Assembly: GCA_031377245.1 (NCBI GenBank)
Contig: JANMEU010000004.1
Span: 60,359-124,358 of the forward strand
Length of the DNA: 64,000 bases
Source: Bacteroidota bacterium
GTDB taxonomy: Bacteria; Bacteroidota; Bacteroidia; Chitinophagales; Chitinophagaceae
Direction of reading: 5' to 3'
The notes under the pieces were generated by a model, which saw nothing but the letters and a program-made list of their open reading frames with translations, did not search any database and was not told where the DNA came from. Shown here piece by piece: positions 2,993 through 64,000 of the stretch. The translations under genes were made by a program, and so were the position numbers. Within the stretch, counting starts at the first letter, position 1. Each line of letters starts with the position of its first letter.

Positions 2993-3465
2993 TGAGCGAA
3001 AAAGAATTTTTGTCACAGCTTAAAGAGCACCAGAATATCATTTATAAGCTGGTGCATCTTTATGCAAATTCAGAAGAGGACAAAAAGGATTTATACCAAG
3101 AGATTGTATTGCAAGCATGGAAAACGTACTCAGCTTTTAGAGGCGAAGCAAAGTTTAGCACCTGGTTATATCGCCTTTGTTTAAACACCATTTTTACTTT
3201 TCAACGAAAAACAAACCGGATTGAATATACCGATACCTTAAAGTATGAGCAGCAATATTCATCCACATCAACCTCCGACGAAGCAGAGCGATTGTACAAA
3301 GCCATCCGTACACTTCCCGAAACGGAAAGAGCTGTAATATCGCTGCATTTAGATGGGTACGACAATAAAGAAGTAAGCGAGCTAATAGGCATAACATCAA
3401 ATTTGGTGGGCGTAAAACTTCACCGGATTAAACAACATTTGGCAACACTTTTAAAAGATATATAA
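2992..3465 (+). CDS. ECF RNA polymerase sigma factor
   Basis: DLYQEIVLQAWK, FRGEAKFSTWLYR (region 2) and region 4 HTH; GTG start overlaps the upstream TAG by 1 nt. Confidence 0.92.
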   Translation: MSEKEFLSQLKEHQNIIYKLVHLYANSEEDKKDLYQEIVLQAWKTYSAFRGEAKFSTWLYRLCLNTIFTFQRKTNRIEYTDTLKYEQQYSSTSTSDEAERLYKAIRTLPETERAVISLHLDGYDNKEVSELIGITSNLVGVKLHRIKQHLATLLKDI

Positions 3466-4109: not shown

Positions 4110-4913
4110 ATGATACAAAAATTAAATCTTGCATCACCTTTAAAAAGCCCACCGTTTAATAACAAAAGAAGCAGCATGCTACCCATTAAATTTGCCCTAC
4201 TTTTTATTTTTTTTGTGGGCACTAGTTTTGCACAATCAAAAAATACTAAACTTAACATCTCACCTTTAAAAGGCGACTTTTATATTTATACAACGTACAA
4301 TACTTACGAAGGAAGTAAAGTGCCTGCTAATGGAATGTATGTAGTAACTAACAAAGGCGTTATACTTTTTGATACCCCTTGGGATACCACACAATTTCAA
4401 CCGTTGCTGGATAGTATTAAATTAAGACATAACAAAAGTGTTGTATTATGCATTGCCACACATTGGCATAGCGATAGAACAGAAGGACTTGAATACTATA
4501 GGAAACAAGGAATTAAAACCTACACCACTTTTTTAACAGATGAATTAAGTAAAAAGAATGGTAAAAAAAGAGCTGAATTTTTAATTGCAAAAGATACCGT
4601 GTTTAATGTTGAGCCATACATTTTTGAAACCTATTACCCAGGCCAAGGGCATACGGCAGACAATATTGTTGTTTGGTTTAATAAAAAAAAAATACTTTAC
4701 GGTGGTTGTTTAATAAAAGGTGCAGAGGCTGAAGATTTGGGTTACTTAGGAGATGGTAATGTGTTGGAGTACGAAACCACCCTTAAAAATGTGCAAAAAA
4801 AATATCCTAATCCAACATTTATAATTGTATCCCATCACAACTGGACTAATAAAAATTCATTGAAGCATTCAATAAAGATGGCAAAGAAATTGAAAAAGGA
4901 AAATAACCGTTAA
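4110..4913 (+). CDS. bla: Subclass B1 metallo-beta-lactamase (BlaB/IND-like); true start probably ATG 4176
   Basis: Full B1 zinc-ligand set: THWHSDR (H116/H118/D120), GHT (H196), YGGCLIK (C221), VSHH (H263); signal peptide from Met at 4176. Confidence 0.9.
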   Translation: MIQKLNLASPLKSPPFNNKRSSMLPIKFALLFIFFVGTSFAQSKNTKLNISPLKGDFYIYTTYNTYEGSKVPANGMYVVTNKGVILFDTPWDTTQFQPLLDSIKLRHNKSVVLCIATHWHSDRTEGLEYYRKQGIKTYTTFLTDELSKKNGKKRAEFLIAKDTVFNVEPYIFETYYPGQGHTADNIVVWFNKKKILYGGCLIKGAEAEDLGYLGDGNVLEYETTLKNVQKKYPNPTFIIVSHHNWTNKNSLKHSIKMAKKLKKENNR

Positions 4914-8830: not shown

Positions 8831-8876
8831 TTGAAAATTTCGAATTGAAAATTAACCAATTGAAAATTCGAAATTT
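8831..8876 (+). repeat. Degenerate TTGAAAATT / GAAAATT-type repeat tract
   Basis: TTGAAAATT at 8831, 8845 and 8860; same core as the AATTTTC heptamers at 41070 and 63792, in opposite orientation. Confidence 0.5.
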
Positions 8877-10629: not shown

Positions 10630-11529
10630 ATGCAACGTCGTTTTATTTATTTTATAAACCCAATATCTGGCACTAAAGGCAAAGAAGCTTTAACGAGTTT
10701 AATTAAAGAAAAAACGACTGCTCAACATATTCCGTTCGAAATTTTACCTACCAATGCTACTGGTAATTATGATTATTTAATTGAAAAAATAAAGGCTGAA
10801 AATATAACGGATATAATTGTGTGTGGTGGTGATGGTACCGTTAATCAAATTGGGAACGCTTTATTAACTGTTACTGTAAACATTGGCATTATTCCAATGG
10901 GTAGTGGTAATGGTTTAGCCTTAGCAGCAAAAATTAGTAAAAATGCTGCTGAGGCGTTAAACACTATTTTTGCAGGAAACACAGCATTAATAGATTGCTT
11001 TTATATTAATGAAAAATTTAGCTGCATGCTTTGTGGGTTGGGTTTTGATGCACAAGTAGCACATGATTTTGCTAAACAAAAAAAAAGAGGGTTATCCACT
11101 TATGTTAAACAATCCATAAAAAATTTTATTGTAGCTAAGCCATACGAATTTACATTAATGGTAGATGGTAGCCATATTAAAACAGAAGCTTTTTTTATAA
11201 GCATAGCCAATAGCAATCAGTTTGGCAATAATTTTACCATTGCCCCTAAAGCTAGTTTACAAGATGGTTTGTTAGATATTATTATTGTAAATAAAATGAG
11301 TAAAGCAAGAATGTTATGGACAGTTTTAAAACAACTTAAGGTTGGGGAAGTACGCCCCTATGAAGATAAAAAATATCATCGTACCGATATTGGTTATTTT
11401 CAAACTGCAAGGCTATCTATACAAAATCCTGGCTTAGCACCTTTGCATATTGATGGTGACCCTGTAGAAACAACAACTAATTTTAATATTGAAATTATAC
11501 CCAAAGCATTGCGGCTGTTGGTGAACTAA
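10630..11529 (+). CDS. Diacylglycerol/lipid kinase (YegS/DgkB family)
   Basis: INPISG, CGGDGTVN, IPMGSGNGLA, GLGFDA, NQFGNN and HIDGD motifs. Confidence 0.92.
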   Translation: MQRRFIYFINPISGTKGKEALTSLIKEKTTAQHIPFEILPTNATGNYDYLIEKIKAENITDIIVCGGDGTVNQIGNALLTVTVNIGIIPMGSGNGLALAAKISKNAAEALNTIFAGNTALIDCFYINEKFSCMLCGLGFDAQVAHDFAKQKKRGLSTYVKQSIKNFIVAKPYEFTLMVDGSHIKTEAFFISIANSNQFGNNFTIAPKASLQDGLLDIIIVNKMSKARMLWTVLKQLKVGEVRPYEDKKYHRTDIGYFQTARLSIQNPGLAPLHIDGDPVETTTNFNIEIIPKALRLLVN

Positions 11530-16582: not shown

Positions 16583-16805
16583 CCTAAACCCCTAAAGGGC
16601 TTTAATGATGTTTTGTTGTTAATTACTTTATCAGCATTTTTTTAAAAATCAACATCGTTTCTGACTTATGCTGTCTTTTGACTTAAAGAAAAATAACCTG
16701 CCTTGTGCCCCATACCCTTATTCAGCCATAACTCAACTTCTCCAAATTTTAGCATATACGTTGCAAAAGTATAAACAAAGTTCCCCCTTTAGGGGGCGGA
16801 GGGGG
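16583..16805. repeat. REP-doublet / MITE-like element, copy 1
   Basis: Left end CCTAAACCCCTAAAGGGCTTT (16583-16603); right end CCCCTTTTAGGGGGCGGAGGGGG (16783-16805); same ends recur at 61742-61861. Confidence 0.75.
16764..16771 (-). promoter_or_regulatory. -7 element TACTTTTG (Sua5/YciO gene)
   Basis: Plus-strand CAAAAGTA; divergent partner at 16827. Confidence 0.55.
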
Positions 16806-27680: not shown

Positions 27681-30600
27681 ATGTTACGAACGACTATGAA
27701 AAAAATTATTGTACAAATCTTTTTTTGTGCCTTTTGCTTACCCGTTTTTGCACAATCAAGCCTATACGTTACCGCAACCGGCACTGGTATAGGTACAAAG
27801 GCTAGCCCTGCAAGTTTATCTAACGCTTTACTAATTGCAACCCCTGGTACGGTAATTAAAATGGCAACCGGTACTTATACTATTAATAACCCGCTTAATC
27901 TGATAAACGGCGTTACCCTCGAGGGAGGTTTTCAAGCCGGGGCAGCCTGGGTAAAAACCAGTATACCCGGTGCTACAGTCATTAACCGTAGTACATCAAA
28001 TCCTGAGGGTGTCCCAAACCAGCAAAGACTGGTGTGTGTGTATGGCAATAATGTGTCTAATTTCAGGTTACAGGATATTACCATTACCACTGCAAATGCA
28101 AATATACCCGGAGAATCAACCTATGGTATTCACTTAACCAATTGCTCAAATTATAATATTATAAGAACGGATGTACTAGCCGGAAACGCAGCAGCCGGAC
28201 AGTCAGGTACTGCTGGCACTGCCGGCTTAAATGGTACAAACGGGGGTGCTGGTTTTAATGGAGATGGAGACGATAATAACTTAAATGCACGTGGGGGTAA
28301 TGGAGGCGCAGGTGCTGGGCCGGGTGGTGCCGGGGGTGCTGGTGGTTCTGTATCGGTTAGTGCCAATAGCGGTAATGGCGCCAATGGCGTTACATCGGCA
28401 AGCATAAGGGCTGGCGGTGGCGGTGGTGGTGGGGGTGCAGGTGGTAGAGAGAATTTTGATACACGGGGAGGAACGGGAGGAAATGGTGGAGGAGTAAATG
28501 GTGGTGCAGTGCAAACTGGCGGTGGATTAGGAGGAGCATGGGGCGATCCCGGACAAACAGGCCAAAATGGCACTGCTGGAACTGCTGGCGCTGTAGGAGC
28601 TGCTGGCGCTGTTGGGGTTGCTGGTATGCATACAGGGGGCTTTTGGGTGCCAGGTGTGCAAGCTGGAACAGGTGCTGACGGCAATGGTGGAAGAGGTGGC
28701 GTAGGCGGCGGCGGCGGCGGCGGGCAATGGTGCACTTTTTGCACTGATGGCACCGGAAATGGTGGAGGTGGAGGCGGAGGTGGTGGCCAAGGTGGTACGG
28801 GTGGTACTGGCGGACGTGGTGGCGGAAACAGCTATGGACTATATTTAGTTAATAATGGAGCAAACGGTATTGTAGACCAATCAAGAATTAATGCAGGTAA
28901 TGGCGGAGCCTTCAGTTCCGGGGGTGCTGGCGGTGCTGGCGGTGGTGGCGGTGCTGGTGGTCTTGGTGCTTCAGCTTGGACGGGTGAAGTAGGTCGTGGC
29001 GGCAATGGCGGTGCTGGCGGTGTTGGCGGTGCTGGTGGTGCTGGTGGTAGTGGTGTACCGGGGTCACCAGTCAATTTTCGCTTTGAATCAGGTACCGTGT
29101 TGGTTACAAATAACGCTGCATTTAACCTTGCAGGGCAGCCTGTAATTACTGTTGAGGATATAGATGCAACTGGTCTATCCATTAATTTTACCAACCCATC
29201 AAGCGTAACCTGGGATTTTGGAGCCAGTGCTGCTCCACAAAACCCTGTTGGTGCAAGCGTAAACACCATCTTTTCAACACAAGGAAGAAAAGATATAATA
29301 GCTGGGGCAAATACCTACTTAGGTTTTGCCAACATTAACAAAGGCCCGGCCACGGGATTAAATTTTGACGGTGTAAACGACCGCATAGATTGCGGAGCAG
29401 GTGCAAGTATAACCAACTTAGGAAGGGATGGCTTTACAATTGAAGCCTGGATTAACCCAACCGCTGTTGCAGCCACACATGCCATTGTGCAAAAAGATGG
29501 CGATTATAATTTCTACATTTTAAACAATAAGCTGGTAGTGGAAATATGGAACCTAGGTACAGGCAATACAGCCCGTCAGGTGGTTACCGGTACTAGTAAT
29601 ATAGCTACCAATAATTGGACTCATGTGGCAGCCAAATGGAATGGAACCAATGCTACTTTTTATATTAATGGCGTTATTGATCCATCAGCACTGGTGTCAA
29701 ACACATCTACCGCAACTGGAAATCTTTTAATCGGAAATTCTGCTTCCTTAAATCGTTCTTTTAATGGAACGATGGATGAATTAAGGATTTGGAACCGTCC
29801 TTTATGCGTAGGAGAAATCCAAAATAACATGAATTGTAATCTTAATCCGGCTGGTCAAACAGGGCTGCTGGCACTATATGATTTTGATGAAGGAATTGCT
29901 TATTATGACAATGCTACAACAACAACGCTTTCTGATGCAAGCGGCAACAGCAACAACGGTACTTTACAAACTTTCGCTTTGTACAATGGTATATCCAATT
30001 GGGTGTATGGTAATGCCAGTGGTACCTGCACGGCTTTTACCTATACTAACCTAGCTGGTACCACAGGCGGCCCTACGGTTACTGCTTCGGAAGTAGTTGA
30101 TGCAGCAGGCACTGTGTACATTGCAGAAAATTGCGACCTTATCGCAAAAATACTTCCCTCGGGAGCCGCTCCGGTAAATGGCAGTATAACTTGTAAAGTA
30201 ATAATTGATGCAACTGTGCAAGTATTCAATGCCGACCCCTATGTACAGCGACATTACGATATAGAGCCCGTTAATAATGCGGCAAACGCAACTGCAACAA
30301 TTACCTTATATTTTACACAAACAGATTTTGATAACTATACAGCAGCGAGTGGTGCCTTTCCAGATTTGCCTACCGGCCCTGGCGATGCTGCTGGTATTGC
30401 CAACTTACGTATTACCCAATACCATGGTACTGGTACACAACCCGGAGCTTATACGGGTTCTGCAATTTTAGTTAACCCTGTTGATACAGACATTGTTTGG
30501 GATGCAATTTTAAACAGATGGGGTATCACTATTAATGTAGTTGGATTTAGCGGATTTTATGTACACACTAGGTCTTTCGGTGAATATCCACTATCTGCCT

Positions 30601-40072: not shown

Positions 40073-41302
40073 TTGCGTCGCACTCTTTTACGGCATACCA
40101 AAATGCAGCAGGCTTTACTCATCCTTTGTTTATTACTAATTATCAGTTATACTGCTATAATCATTTATTATGCAAGTAGTTGGAGGAGAATAAGCAATTG
40201 GCAATTGGCAATTGGCAATAACTTACCACTCACCGCTCACCTATCCATAATAATCCCTGCCCGTAATGAGGAAGAAAACATTGCTACTTGCATTCAATCT
40301 ATATTAAATCAATCTTACCCAAAAAATTTGTACGAAATAATTGTAGTGAATGATCATTCAACAGATGCAACAGCAAGTATTGTAAAAGCGTTTAATGAAC
40401 CCAATATAAAATGTATTGATTTAATAAATTTCATTGGCAACGAAACCAATAGTTACAAAAAAAAGGGAATTGAAGTTGGTATTGAACAAGCTGTGGGCGA
40501 ATTAATAATTACCACCGATGCCGATTGTATTGCACCTCCAAATTGGTTACAAACTATTGCCGTATTTTACGAAGAAAAAAAACCAGATTTAATAGTGATG
40601 CCAGTATCTATTCTCCCCTCTCCAATTGGAGAAGGGTTGGGGACGAGGTGGTTTATAGAAATTTTTCAAGCCCTAGACTTTATGACGCTACAAGGCATAA
40701 CTGGTGCTGCTGTACATAAAAAAGTTCACAGCATGTGTAATGGTGCAAATTTAGCGTATACAAAAAAAGCGTTTAATGCTGTAAATGGTTTTGCAGGTAT
40801 TAATAGTATTGCCAGTGGCGATGATATGTTGTTGATGCACAAAATTTACACTCAACATAAAAAGGGCATTGCCTATTTAAAAAATGCAGCAGTTATTGTA
40901 CAAACTAAACCAGTAAAAACTATCACCGAATTTATTAATCAACGTATACGATGGGCTAGTAAGGCAGATAAGTATGAAGATAAAAGAATGTTACCTGTAT
41001 TGATAGTGGTTTATTTTTTTAATGTGCTACTATTAGCCATGCCCATAATTGGTGTTATTACAAATTTCAAATTTTCAATTTTCAATTTTCAATTTTCAAT
41101 TTTTCAATTGTGGTTTTGGCTTTTACTTTTTAAAATGGTAATCGAAATTATATTTCTTATTCCTGTTGCAAAGTTTTTTAATAAACTACCCTTACTATTT
41201 TTATTTCCGTTTATGCAGCCTTTTCATATTATTTACACCATAATTGCTGGTTGGCTAGGTAAGTTTGGAAGGTATAGCTGGAAGGGGAGGCAAGTAAAAT
41301 AA
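40073..41302 (+). CDS. GT2 family glycosyltransferase (probable start ATG 40103)
   Basis: IIIPARNEE, VNDHSTD, TTDADC (DxD), NGANL, GDD and QRIRW motifs; C-terminal TM helices. Confidence 0.92.
   Translation: MRRTLLRHTKMQQALLILCLLLIISYTAIIIYYASSWRRISNWQLAIGNNLPLTAHLSIIIPARNEEENIATCIQSILNQSYPKNLYEIIVVNDHSTDATASIVKAFNEPNIKCIDLINFIGNETNSYKKKGIEVGIEQAVGELIITTDADCIAPPNWLQTIAVFYEEKKPDLIVMPVSILPSPIGEGLGTRWFIEIFQALDFMTLQGITGAAVHKKVHSMCNGANLAYTKKAFNAVNGFAGINSIASGDDMLLMHKIYTQHKKGIAYLKNAAVIVQTKPVKTITEFINQRIRWASKADKYEDKRMLPVLIVVYFFNVLLLAMPIIGVITNFKFSIFNFQFSIFQLWFWLLLFKMVIEIIFLIPVAKFFNKLPLLFLFPFMQPFHIIYTIIAGWLGKFGRYSWKGRQVK
40194..40242 (+). repeat. In-frame heptamer tracts in the GT2 gene
   Basis: (GCAATTG)x3 + GCAATA (40194-40220) followed by CTTACCA CTCACCG CTCACCT (40222-40242). 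Confidence 0.8.
40613..40648 (+). repeat. REP-like hairpin element inserted in frame in the GT2 gene
   Basis: CTCCCCTCTCC-AATT-GGAGAAGGGTTGGGGACGAGG; exactly 36 nt, 12 codons (LPSPIGEGLGTR); GC-rich against an AT-rich gene. Confidence 0.75.
41063..41110 (+). repeat. In-frame (AATTTTC)n heptamer tract in the GT2 gene
   Basis: Four perfect AATTTTC units at 41070-41097 with degenerate flanks; translates as FKFSIFNFQFSIFQL. Confidence 0.85.
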
Positions 41303-57770: not shown

Positions 57771-58682
57771 TTACACCACTCTAATTTTATCTGCATACAT
57801 ACTCAAAAAAACGACTAACAAGTAAAAATAAGAACTAAACATTACCCGTCTTGCGCTTTTAATATCCATATTTATAAATAACAACACACTTACATAAACC
57901 ATTGCCAAATTACAAGCAATCAAAATCCACATACTTACACTTCCTGTCATGTTAAAAAAGTGTGGCAATAATCCAACAGGTAGCATTAAAGCGCTGTAAA
58001 TTATTGTTTGCAAAGCGGTAAATTTTGTTGGTCCTTTATCGCTAGGTAAAAGCTTAAAACCAGCAGCAGAATAATCTTTATGTGCCACCCAAGCTATTGC
58101 CCAAAAATGTGGAAACTGCCATAAAAATTGAATACCAAACAATATCCATCCACCTGCACTAAAACTATCTGTAGCTGCAACCCACCCAATTAGGCAAGGT
58201 AAAGCGCCAGGTAATGCACCTACTAAAACCGAAACGGAGTTTATTTTTTTTAATGGCGTATATACAAAGCCATATAAAAATAAACTAAACAAACCCACCA
58301 TGGCACTACTAAAGTTAAAAAACCACCACATAATAAAAATGCCTAAACCTCCAGCAACAACCGCAAAAATACTTGCTTCGGTTACAGTCATCCTGCCGCT
58401 AGGTAATGGCCTAGTAGCTGTTCGTTTCATTAGTGCATCGGTGTCTTTCTCCAAAATTTGATTAATGGTATTTGCACTTCCGGTTATTAGCATTCCGCCA
58501 ATAAAAAGTAAAAGAACTTGTAGTAAATCAAAACGTATATTAGGTGCCAACAAGTAGCTTACTACTGTGCTAAATACCACCATAAAGCTTAACGTGAATT
58601 TTATTAATTGAAAATAATCTTTCACTTTACTTGCCAACCCAAACGATGCTGAGTTTTTTATGTTGGTATCTTCTTGTTGCAT
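57771..58682 (-). CDS. cyoE: Heme O synthase (protoheme IX farnesyltransferase)
   Basis: D.LM.RT..RPLPSG, YTPLK, GALP.LIGW and WQFPHFWAI motifs. Confidence 0.95.
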   Translation of the reverse strand: MQQEDTNIKNSASFGLASKVKDYFQLIKFTLSFMVVFSTVVSYLLAPNIRFDLLQVLLLFIGGMLITGSANTINQILEKDTDALMKRTATRPLPSGRMTVTEASIFAVVAGGLGIFIMWWFFNFSSAMVGLFSLFLYGFVYTPLKKINSVSVLVGALPGALPCLIGWVAATDSFSAGGWILFGIQFLWQFPHFWAIAWVAHKDYSAAGFKLLPSDKGPTKFTALQTIIYSALMLPVGLLPHFFNMTGSVSMWILIACNLAMVYVSVLLFINMDIKSARRVMFSSYFYLLVVFLSMYADKIRVV

Positions 58683-58787
58683 TATTCTGTTAATGGTTAA
58701 TCGTTAATGGTAATAGCCCTCAACAGTTATAAAATTCTAACTCACCATTATCGCATTACCAAATCATCGAATTATCACATTGTATTA

Positions 58788-61722: not shown

Positions 61723-61741
61723 ATAAAATTTATTAACGATG

Positions 61742-61861
61742 CCCCAAACCCCTAAAGGGGCTTTTGTACCCTAATAAGGTGGAGAGCTTTTCAATATTTT
61801 TTTACAATACTTTATTCAATCAATAATTAACTTACCCAATTCCCCTTTAGGGGCAGAGGGG
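61742..61861. repeat. REP-doublet / MITE-like element, copy 2
   Basis: CCCCAAACCCCTAAAGGGGCTTT (61742-64) ... CCCCTTTAGGGGCAGAGGGG (61842-61), abutting the actF stop. Confidence 0.75.
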
Positions 61862-63157: not shown

Positions 63158-63787
63158 TTATTTTGTTTTTGCAACCGAAGCGCTGTCTGCTTTTGCAGGA
63201 GTTGCTTTTGGTTGTAATGTTCTTACATAGTTAATAACCATCCAACGTTGTTTTCTATCTAGTTGAGATGCATAGCTACCCATATTATTTTTACCATAGG
63301 TTAAAGAATGAAACATTGTTCCATCTGTCATACTAACATATAATGGTAAATTAAGGTTAGCTACTGCTCCAATCTTTCCAGCTATTGGGCCATTACCTCC
63401 ACCTTTTTCTCCATGGCAAACACCACAGTTAATATTATACAATCTTCCAGCCTCTGCTAATTCATCTTTTGTAAATGTAGTAACTGGGTTTTGTAAAGAT
63501 GCGCTTGCTGCGTAGCCGGCACTATCATTTTTGCCTGTGTAGGCAAACAATTCGCCTCTTTTAACGGTGCCTTCAACAGGCGATGCATTAAAAAAAGCAT
63601 TGCGCCTATTTTCAGCATCTTCTCTATTAAGAGAAAAATTGGTGGTGTCTAATAGGCTATATGCTTCGTAAGCTCTGCTATATGCCATATCGGGCATATA
63701 TATTTTGCCTGGGTTTTGTTTATTACCACAGCTACTAATAGTAATAACTGCTAAAAGAGTTAAACCTATATTGATAATTTTATTCAT
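63158..63787 (-). CDS. actE: Alternative complex III monoheme cytochrome c lipoprotein ActE (ORF track starts at 63793, TTG)
   Basis: Lipobox ISSC; YMPDM..S.AYE; CGVCH heme site; MGSYA...RW. Confidence 0.88.
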   Translation of the reverse strand: MNKIINIGLTLLAVITISSCGNKQNPGKIYMPDMAYSRAYEAYSLLDTTNFSLNREDAENRRNAFFNASPVEGTVKRGELFAYTGKNDSAGYAASASLQNPVTTFTKDELAEAGRLYNINCGVCHGEKGGGNGPIAGKIGAVANLNLPLYVSMTDGTMFHSLTYGKNNMGSYASQLDRKQRWMVINYVRTLQPKATPAKADSASVAKTK

Positions 63788-63791
63788 TTTC

Positions 63792-63812
63792 AATTTTCAA
63801 TTTTCAATTTTC
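63792..63812 (-). repeat. (GAAAATT)x3 heptamer tract between actD and actE
   Basis: Three perfect plus-strand AATTTTC units filling the short intergenic gap. Confidence 0.8.
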
Positions 63813-63814
63813 TA

Positions 63815-64000
63815 TTAATATCCTACTTCTTCTTTATACAATTTTTGTTCTCTGTCATATCTTCCTATCCACCAACCCGTTTCTGCAACCTGTATATTTA
63901 TTTCTGTTGCTCCTGCATTGCTTAAAAAGGATTGCACTTCGGCTTCGTTGGTTTTATCGGTACACTCAATTGCCATTACAAATAAATCGTCGGTTGCTCT
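63815..64000 (-). CDS. actD: Alternative complex III subunit ActD (DUF3341), 3' end only
   Basis: My translation of 62 codons: RATDDLFVMAIEC...GATEINIQ...EVGY*; sits directly upstream of actE; truncated by the window edge. Confidence 0.8.
   Translation of the reverse strand, partial: RATDDLFVMAIECTDKTNEAEVQSFLSNAGATEINIQVAETGWWIGRYDREQKLYKEEVGY

Follow-up and report, generated by a model that had tools for sequence, protein, structure and literature searches.

Heptamer arrays and a palindromic element encode three loops of a membrane glycosyltransferase in Ferruginibacter-like Chitinophagaceae

The glycosyltransferase gene and its repeat-encoded segments

We analyzed a stretch of 64,000 nucleotides (hereafter the window) of contig JANMEU010000004.1 (GenBank assembly GCA_031377245.1), in which the gene for a predicted membrane glycosyltransferase of the GT2 family contains repeat DNA at three places. 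Three loops of the protein, referred to as segments 1, 2 and 3, are encoded by this DNA: two are written in tandem arrays of 7-base units and one in a palindromic element (HP1). A preliminary description, made from the sequence alone, had already reported three repeat features translated within this gene. Inspection of the sequence, Tandem Repeats Finder (TRF) and translation confirmed all three at the same places, in a reading frame that is intact from the ATG at 40103 to the stop at 41302 (coordinates of all features are collected in Table 1). A longer version of the open reading frame (ORF) opens at TTG 40073, but the true start is probably ATG 40103, because orthologues begin with MQQALL. 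Among the predicted peptides, as read from the sequence, are LPSPIGEGLGTR and FSIFNFQFSIFQ. An acyl-CoA dehydrogenase gene and a MarR gene lie upstream and an OppC-like permease gene downstream. By its homologues and synteny, the window belongs to a Ferruginibacter-like member of the Chitinophagaceae. The sequencing runs containing it are freshwater sediment and lake metagenomes. The GC content of the genome is ~33%, with 32% in the region around the palindrome.

The protein matched the Pfam families PF00535, PF13641, PF13632, PF10111 and PF13506. In full-length NCBIfam comparisons the HpnB-type lipid glycosyltransferases were nearest, far below the cutoff, and CruG covered most of the length, likewise far below the cutoff. 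The AlphaFold2 model had a mean predicted local distance difference test (pLDDT) score of 84.9 and displayed a first transmembrane helix (TM1, residues 2-29), a GT-A domain (~47-290) and three C-terminal transmembrane helices (296-319, 333-358 and 362-388). Foldseek matched it to hyaluronan synthase, PcManGT and BcsA (TM-scores of 0.56-0.69, normalised to the query), which are membrane-embedded GT2 synthases. The gene product is modelled as a membrane-embedded GT2 enzyme with four transmembrane helices. In the model, residues 30-46, 171-182 and 320-336 (segments 1, 2 and 3, respectively) fall between secondary-structure elements, in agreement with the earlier proposal that they occupy linkers or loops.

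For comparison with relatives, whose loci and orthologous proteins are designated by L- and P-numbers, respectively, we aligned 30 database homologues (59-92% identity) and 57 orthologues from GTDB genomes (44-63%), and compared the DNA of about 25 of the aligned orthologues. A metagenome scan for close relatives yielded L081 and L097 only. Relatives with 80-92% identity also had all three segments, and much more distant ones still had segments 2 and 3. By these alignments the repeat loops are old, fast-evolving and common to the relatives rather than three fresh insertions, and none of them entered this genome recently.

Heptamer arrays, palindromes and mosaicism among relatives

Period 7 was the sole over-represented tandem-repeat period in the DNA examined from this lineage. 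Order-3 Markov simulations of the window predicted 0.0 perfect tandem repeats of at least three copies with periods 6 to 12, while three were observed, all of period 7; two of these lie inside the glycosyltransferase gene and the third is intergenic. Across 80 distant loci (1.28 Mb) there were 8 perfect heptamer arrays compared with 0 to 2 for each of the other periods from 5 to 12, and 4 of the 8 were located in the orthologous gene. In the window and close relatives together (218 kb), TRF detected 32 arrays of period 7, whereas each of the other periods had between 2 and 9. The glycosyltransferase gene, which measures ~1.2 kb, held about two thirds of the 32, and the earlier view of this gene as a hotspot was borne out accordingly.

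Segment 3 contains a perfect core of AATTTTC x4.9 at 41070-41103, flanked by 8-nt variants, and is modelled as a beta-hairpin loop between transmembrane helices with a pLDDT of about 80. Throughout the Ferruginibacter-like clade it aligns at equal length as a pair of N-x-Q-x-S-x-F heptapeptides, whereas 14 to 18 residues are missing here once identity falls to about 55% or less. Because it is clade-wide yet absent beyond that identity, segment 3 is an old insertion. At the DNA level, each clade member compared carried a heptamer array at this site, with different units in different lineages (Table 1). The variable heptapeptide positions 2, 4 and 6 are exactly those containing the variable fourth base of the unit, and units within one array have a common fourth base, a pattern of concerted evolution of the heptamer at the DNA level. 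Arrays shorter by exactly 21 nt were found in L082 and L139 and, at the protein level, in P0071, P0077 and P0087. In the orientation used by the gene AATTTTC is free of stop codons, and every frame gives the cyclic peptide NFQFSIF. In the source metagenomes, word depth rose from about 29 to 211-413 in the tract, more than 12 contigs with other flanks ended there, and the run's own contig also breaks at it. The AATTTTC array is therefore dispersed in the source communities, and the earlier account of segment 3 as an insertion of a dispersed repeat is supported. A candidate -1 ribosomal frameshift site (AAATTTT) in this segment was rejected, since the zero frame reads AAA TTT and not X XXY YYZ.

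Segment 1 forms the cytoplasmic linker behind TM1, the first array (1a) encoding SNWQLAIGN (residues about 31-39). The second array (1b) was recognized by TRF in relatives, as ACTCACC x3.0 in L131, x6.0 in L137 and x4.1 in L138. Segment 1 is not an insertion, because the linker of distant orthologues differs in length by no more than 0 to 3 residues; the preliminary description, which treated it as inserted, had itself named such equal-length sequence in distant relatives as evidence to the contrary. In most relatives the linker is likewise made of heptamer arrays, with a unit that differs by lineage (Table 1), and relative to the window its length differs by +21 nt in L132, L133 and L081 and by +42 nt in L140. 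Most of the length changes recorded among the arrays were thus of 21 or 42 nt. A search for a second GCAATTG array across the 64-kb window found none, and the unit showed little added depth in the source metagenomes. For these two reasons GCAATTG is neither a dispersed nor an intergenic repeat family, contrary to what had been assumed. We also considered that segment 1 was a former 5' leader array fused to the ORF; this was unsupported, as every orthologue has TM1, even where an array is lacking.

The palindromic element of segment 2 reads CCCCTCTCC-AATT-GGAGAAGGG, with one C/A mismatch, followed by TT and GGGGACGAGG (40615-40648). Its 9-bp stem, 4-nt loop and conserved 3' tail match the class of short imperfect palindromes of 20-40 nt, and its GC content is 61% against a background of ~32%. 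The consensus among copies is CCCCTCTCC-N4-GGAGAGGGG-YTR-GGGGTGAGG, with a length of 33-36 nt. In the window the pattern occurs once, with 0.00 to 0.06 occurrences expected. The peptide LPSPIGEGLGTR(W) sits between MPVSI and FIEIFQ. In the model it is a coil that links a strand to a helix, and nowhere is confidence lower than in this peptide (pLDDT <50 at residues 175-178). Of 108 orthologues, 64 had a short loop, 35 carried the HP1 peptide, either as LPSPxGEGLGxR or in a decayed version, and 6 had another insert. The short-loop consensus is I-N/D-C-S-N-K/R, and because the outgroup orthologues carry this short 'NCSNK' loop, the HP1 state is the derived one. HP1 takes the place of about 5 codons (~15 nt) with about 12 to 13 (~36-39 nt).

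Copies of HP1 outside the glycosyltransferase gene were found in L034 and L040, in each case between convergent genes. In each source metagenome, 2 to 4 further contigs carried HP1 with other flanks, one flank containing another copy; the depth of one such contig was 25.4, compared with 28.9 for the window's own contig. HP1 is thus a low-copy family of dispersed palindromes that are otherwise intergenic. The earlier reading of segment 2 as such an element, absent from outgroups, holds, except that it is a replacement and not a simple insertion. The 5' flanks of the copies (ATTCTC, ATATTC, TCAATC, ACTTTC and CAAAGC) contain neither GTAG nor GTGG. Rfam gave nothing meaningful for the whole window at gathering thresholds or for the hairpin region at E values up to 10, and literature searches with the hairpin or peptide strings returned unrelated papers only.

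In the alignment of HP1 stems, 88.9% of cells pair, as compared with 49-63% when the partner is slid. Two stem pairs were changed on both sides, one of them synonymously (CCC...GAG versus CCT...GAA). A within-species series leads from PSPSGEG with a perfect stem, through PSPSGVG with one mismatch (L143), to PTPSGVG with the stem restored (L081), and the variable residue x of PSPxGEG coincides with the hairpin loop. These patterns suggest that the stem is conserved as nucleic acid rather than as peptide. The other insert is a second palindrome, HP2, which is unrelated to HP1 and occupies the same loop site in other lineages; it reads GGAATTCGCC-ACAA-GGCGAATTCC and contains EcoRI sites. L138 has two HP2 copies around a 40-nt spacer (-46.7 kcal/mol), which gives it the look of a miniature inverted-repeat transposable element (MITE), and L139 has a single copy (z = -4.9) with two compensatory base-pair changes. 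The possibility that the short NCSN allele is itself a nucleating palindrome was unsupported: its AATTGCAGCAAT arms are only 5 bp and the palindrome is not conserved (L142, L010).

Sliding-window comparison of the DNA revealed a mosaic. Between the window and L131 identity was 96-99%, except for 79-84% around the hairpin and 63-72% in segment 3. Between the window and L132 it was 93-99% through the middle, including the hairpin, with 77-88% in segment 1 and 64-73% in segment 3. The three segments are the fastest-diverging parts of the gene and assort independently among close relatives. On a neighbour-joining tree of the 108 orthologues with the segments masked, loop state (HP1, short or HP2) required at least 22 changes, while shuffled tips gave about 38. 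From this we infer that loop cassettes may be exchanged among relatives by recombination, which would explain the patchy distribution of the three states, because deletion cannot regenerate the ancestral NCSNK.

Origin and maintenance of the repeat-encoded loops

The explanation that we consider probable, with some reservation, is that three permissive loops accommodate slippage-prone heptamers and a small palindrome, limited only by the reading frame and the need to avoid stops; homogenisation would act on this DNA, and recombination would reshuffle it. Replication slippage would generate the arrays of segments 1 and 3 and keep re-homogenising them. Because 7 and 3 are coprime, such an array yields one cyclic heptapeptide in every frame, and three AATTTTC units would translate as NFQFSIF. 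An array would survive within the ORF solely in its stop-free orientation, could change in length only by steps of 21 nt (three units, seven residues), and would stay at one of two fixed old sites while its unit sequence drifts in concert. A surface loop of the GT-A domain would accept HP1 because no stop arises in either arm, the C-rich one giving PSP and the G-rich one GEG, and element lengths of 33 or 36 nt, being multiples of three, would keep the frame. Homologous recombination among related strains and species would reassort all three segments as cassettes, presumably at no cost or gain to the enzyme. Both kinds of unstable DNA are common outside genes in Ferruginibacter-like Chitinophagaceae.

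Several observations weigh against this explanation. The gene holds far more repeat elements than its neighbours, a choice that permissive loops alone do not account for, and the repeat counts for the organism itself come from 64 kb of its genome. The case for cassette exchange consists of a single mosaic pattern together with homoplasy on the neighbour-joining tree. The stem covariation comprises 11 related sequences and two events, with the observed score reached by 5 of 500 shuffles. Template switching within quasi-palindromes is an established mutational mechanism, and by this route the apparent compensation in the stem can arise without selection. Among ORFs of 100 aa or more in the 1.84 Mb scanned, none besides this gene contained the HP1 peptide. 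The N-x-Q-x-S-x-F heptapeptide of segment 3 is retained by orthologues of 59-92% identity and forms a beta-hairpin in the model (pLDDT about 80), so that selection at the protein level may act there.

The main rival is a contingency locus, because slippage by a single unit would frameshift a glycosyltransferase: gain or loss of 7 nt might switch a lipid or polysaccharide glycosyltransferase by phase variation. Glycosyltransferases are a classic phase-variable gene class, the arrays are non-triplet repeats inside an ORF, and their persistence at two sites during unit turnover is what would be expected if mutability rather than sequence were selected. Haemophilus influenzae offers precedents for heptanucleotide repeats; in one of them, (AATTTTG)14 lies within the hmw1a ORF and a frameshift is described (PMC2651432). 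The perfect tracts, however, measure 3.7 and 4.9 units in the window and 4.6 to 5.1 in several other lineages (L136, L140, L002), low numbers for a fast switch in view of the usual minimum of 6 to 8. No frameshifted allele was found among close relatives; the nearest species-level group has 41 cluster representatives, every one of them 426 aa long, and contigs from four metagenomes showed no indels (Logan assemblies, in which contigs drop rare variants). A single truncated protein, P0054 (L143, 372 aa), ends at the AATTTTC tract and was set aside as an artefact of a public scaffold in which an N-gap and foreign AATTTTC-containing sequence are joined into the gene (3220-3360). We regard a contingency locus as unlikely. 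A broader form of the idea holds the gene to be designed to vary, with the heptamer tracts as selected frameshift switches and the loop as a dedicated landing or recombination site for palindromes (HP1, HP2 or none), so that arrays and hairpins would vary or regulate envelope glycolipid synthesis throughout a lineage of free-living bacteria; this seems more doubtful still.

Selection might alternatively act on the protein, especially on a PSPxGEGLGVR loop and on an aromatic hairpin, N-F/I-Q-F/Y-S-I-F, lying at the surface of the membrane, with the DNA repeats as a mere footprint. Conservation of the heptapeptide pair, the modelled beta-hairpin and the retention of PSPxGEGLGxR in 35 of 108 orthologues fit this proposal. 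Against it, each loop is wholly missing from many orthologues, L002 carries another unit (ATTATCC, giving HYPLSII) at the segment 3 site, and amino-acid variation tracks the nucleotide unit in all three phases. The stem changes from S to T and from E to V retained pairing and not the peptide, the variable residue of PSPxGEG falls on the hairpin loop, and at the same site HP1 is replaced by the unrelated HP2, all of which makes a protein-level function distinctly improbable. A related claim of the preliminary description, that the repeats had been recruited as coding sequence, implied such a function, and we found nothing in support of one. Rather less probable again are cis-acting RNA or DNA signals within the ORF, where the hairpin and arrays would bind a factor or cause pausing and so affect translation, the stability of the mRNA or insertion into the membrane during synthesis; one candidate is a factor that might also recognise the heptamer arrays close before start codons. 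Covariation in the HP1 stem and the occurrence of two independent palindromes at one site, each with compensatory changes, would suit such signals, as would the heptamer arrays that abut start codons in the window and its relatives, which fit a proposal made for TAACTGA arrays (PMC4679880). The lack of an Rfam family match, the RNA fold of the window hairpin, which was not better than that of shuffled sequences (z = -0.9), and the many orthologues without the elements argue the other way. Chance low complexity in an AT-rich genome, or an assembly artefact, is next to negligible: a GC content of about 33% and the tendency of assemblers to break or mis-join at the AATTTTC tract would favor it, but the Markov simulations expect no arrays at all and the same architecture recurs in independent NCBI, JGI, ENA and Logan assemblies.

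Tolerance of slippage-prone and palindromic DNA, the explanation that we favor, has parallels in described systems. Rickettsia palindromic elements and intragenic MITEs of the enterobacterial repetitive intergenic consensus (ERIC) type are in-frame palindromic repeats within genes (PMC10969869). HP1 resembles the Rickettsia elements in being dispersed, palindromic and in frame inside an enzyme gene, its peptide falling where the fold can accommodate it. It differs from them in length (33-36 nt versus about 100-150 nt), in its unrelated sequence and in its free-living Bacteroidota host, and is not a member of that family. It also differs in being borne by this one gene only in 1.84 Mb, in replacing about 5 codons, in sharing its site with HP2 and in its highly patchy distribution among orthologues. 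With repetitive extragenic palindromic (REP) sequences and bacterial interspersed mosaic elements HP1 has in common that it is short, imperfect and GC-rich with a conserved tail, and that copies lie between convergent genes and are sometimes adjacent. The hallmark of REP sequences is a GT(A/G)G head, which HP1 lacks; moreover, the copy studied here is intragenic and copy number appears low.

In many bacteria no long simple-sequence repeat is described as commoner than the heptamer (Mrazek 2007, cited in PMC4679880), and in Beggiatoaceae, cyanobacteria and some Bacteroidetes arrays of TAACTGA stand directly next to start codons (PMC4679880). The arrays studied here share with these short tandemly repeated sequences the enrichment of period 7, the mostly intergenic, start-abutting position with stops in all frames, and the occasional array within an ORF that has a stop-free orientation and a 7-aa repeat. 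They differ in that their units are others and lineage-specific, that two arrays are fixed within one enzyme gene across deep divergence, and that these show concerted unit turnover and length quanta of 21 nt. The phase-variable glycosyltransferase and adhesin genes of Haemophilus influenzae likewise carry a non-triplet repeat in an ORF, where slippage by one unit would have the same consequence as in the GT2 gene; the GT2 tracts differ in their low unit numbers, in showing no frameshifted alleles or copy-number polymorphism, and in their environmental host.

What is unusual in the present case is that both kinds of repeat are concentrated in one conserved enzyme gene, that a single loop site alternates among an empty state and two different palindromes, and that arrays have kept their sites over deep divergence while their units turned over in concert. 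The gene provides a clear example from multiple lineages, outside Rickettsia and pathogens, in which repeats of a non-coding type have long been carried in a conserved enzyme gene. Simple rules would permit this: a stop-free orientation, a period coprime to three, length changes in quanta of 21 nt, and palindromes in multiples of three. In the loops, forces at the nucleotide level (concerted turnover and stem compensation) appear to override conservation of the peptide. For annotation and alignment, such loops need to be recognized as repeat-derived, as they break assemblies and create spurious truncated database proteins such as P0054. Should the tracts indeed switch the enzyme, contingency loci would be extended to environmental Bacteroidota.

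Other repeats in the window and in related loci

Table 1 Positions of the glycosyltransferase gene, its repeat segments and other repeats in the window and in related loci (L-numbers).
Feature	Position	Strand	Details
Membrane GT2 glycosyltransferase, coding sequence	40103..41302	+	399 aa; Pfam, NCBIfam, AlphaFold2, Foldseek, orthologue starts
Segment 1a, GCAATTG x3.7	40194..40219	+	100% match; TRF
Segment 1b, CTCACCN-type heptamers CTTACCA CTCACCG CTCACCT	40222..40242	+	Read from sequence; encodes LPLTAHL
Segment 2, palindromic element HP1	40613..40648	+	36 nt; encodes LPSPIGEGLGTR, residues 171-182
HP1 left arm	40615-40623		
HP1 loop AATT	40624-40627		
HP1 right arm	40628-40636		Followed by spacer TT
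HP1 G-run tail	40639-40648		
Segment 3, heptamer array CAATTTT x6.7	41061..41109	+	TRF; encodes NFKFSIFNFQFSIFQ, residues about 320-336
Segment 1 units			GCAATTG window; TAGATTT L001; GGCAGAT L002; CAAACCA L010, L024; CCATCAA L139; CYACTCA L137, L138; GGCAATN x5 L140
Segment 3 units			AATTTTC window, L136; AATATTC L131, L132, L135, L138, L140; AATGTTC L009; mixed L001, L010, L015; ATTATCC L002
HP2 in orthologous genes	L138 about 4270-4345; L139 10500-10560		
GAAAATT x4.4 (AATTTTC heptamer), intergenic	63786..63816	-	Runs into ATG 63787-63785 of lipoprotein-like gene
GTTAATG x3.3 (plus; CATTAAC on minus)	58689..58711	-	6 nt upstream of ATG of gene 57771-58682 (-)
Start-adjacent arrays in relatives	L137 9359-9390; L139 9287-9365; L139 19789-19819		Minus-strand genes
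Looser TTGAAAAT repeat	8831-8873		14-15 nt spacing
Family-2 hairpin TTCCCCCTTTAGGGGGCGGAGGGGG, intergenic	16783..16805	+	HP1 layout (hairpin and second G-run), different sequence family
Family-2 hairpin TTCCCCTTTAGGGGCAGAGGGG, intergenic	61842..61861	+	Family-2 pattern
Family-2 hairpin, further copy	61741-61765		
DUF433 or DUF433/DUF5615 insert	L136 3156-3377; L137 11217-11779; L138 5023-5585; L139 11202-11761		

Outside the glycosyltransferase gene, heptamer arrays preceded start codons at distances of 0 to 17 nt. On the gene strand their units were GAAAATT, CATTAAC, TAACAAT, TATGAAC and CGATGTA, four of the five containing a stop codon in gene orientation. The GAAAATT array in the window, in the orientation facing its gene, reads TGA in all three frames. 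Two intergenic occurrences of AATTTTC had been proposed previously; the array at 63786-63816 is one, while at the other place only a looser repeat was found.

The intergenic hairpins at 16783 and 61842 had been compared with HP1. They share its layout of C-run, loop, G-run, spacer and second G-run, but belong to a different sequence family (family 2). The pattern of this family is TTCCCC(C)TTTAGGGG(G)C(G)GAGGGG(G), also written TTCCCC(C)TT(T/C)AGGGG(G)-N3-4-GGGG(G), in which the C-run can pair with either G-run. With 21 copies in 1.34 Mb (window and loci), 18 of them in L001-L045, these hairpins were commoner than HP1. They are widespread in metagenome-assembled genomes of Chitinophagaceae and have no Rfam match.

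In some relatives, a DUF433 gene or a DUF433/DUF5615 pair, putatively toxin-antitoxin-like, lies between the glycosyltransferase gene and the OppC-like permease gene; the window is without it. In L040, a tandem repeat of 14 nt, composed of two 7-nt halves (CAAGATTTAAGGAA x about 4, 11018-11085), is located in the intergenic region just downstream of the orthologue and is followed by the HP1 copy at 11134-11167. Elsewhere in the window, a GC-rich island at 28319-29055 (49% versus about 33% GC) contains glycine-rich coding repeats of 9, 12 and 18 nt, with GGTGCTGGC x13 and others, and probably encodes a glycine-rich repetitive surface or secreted protein.

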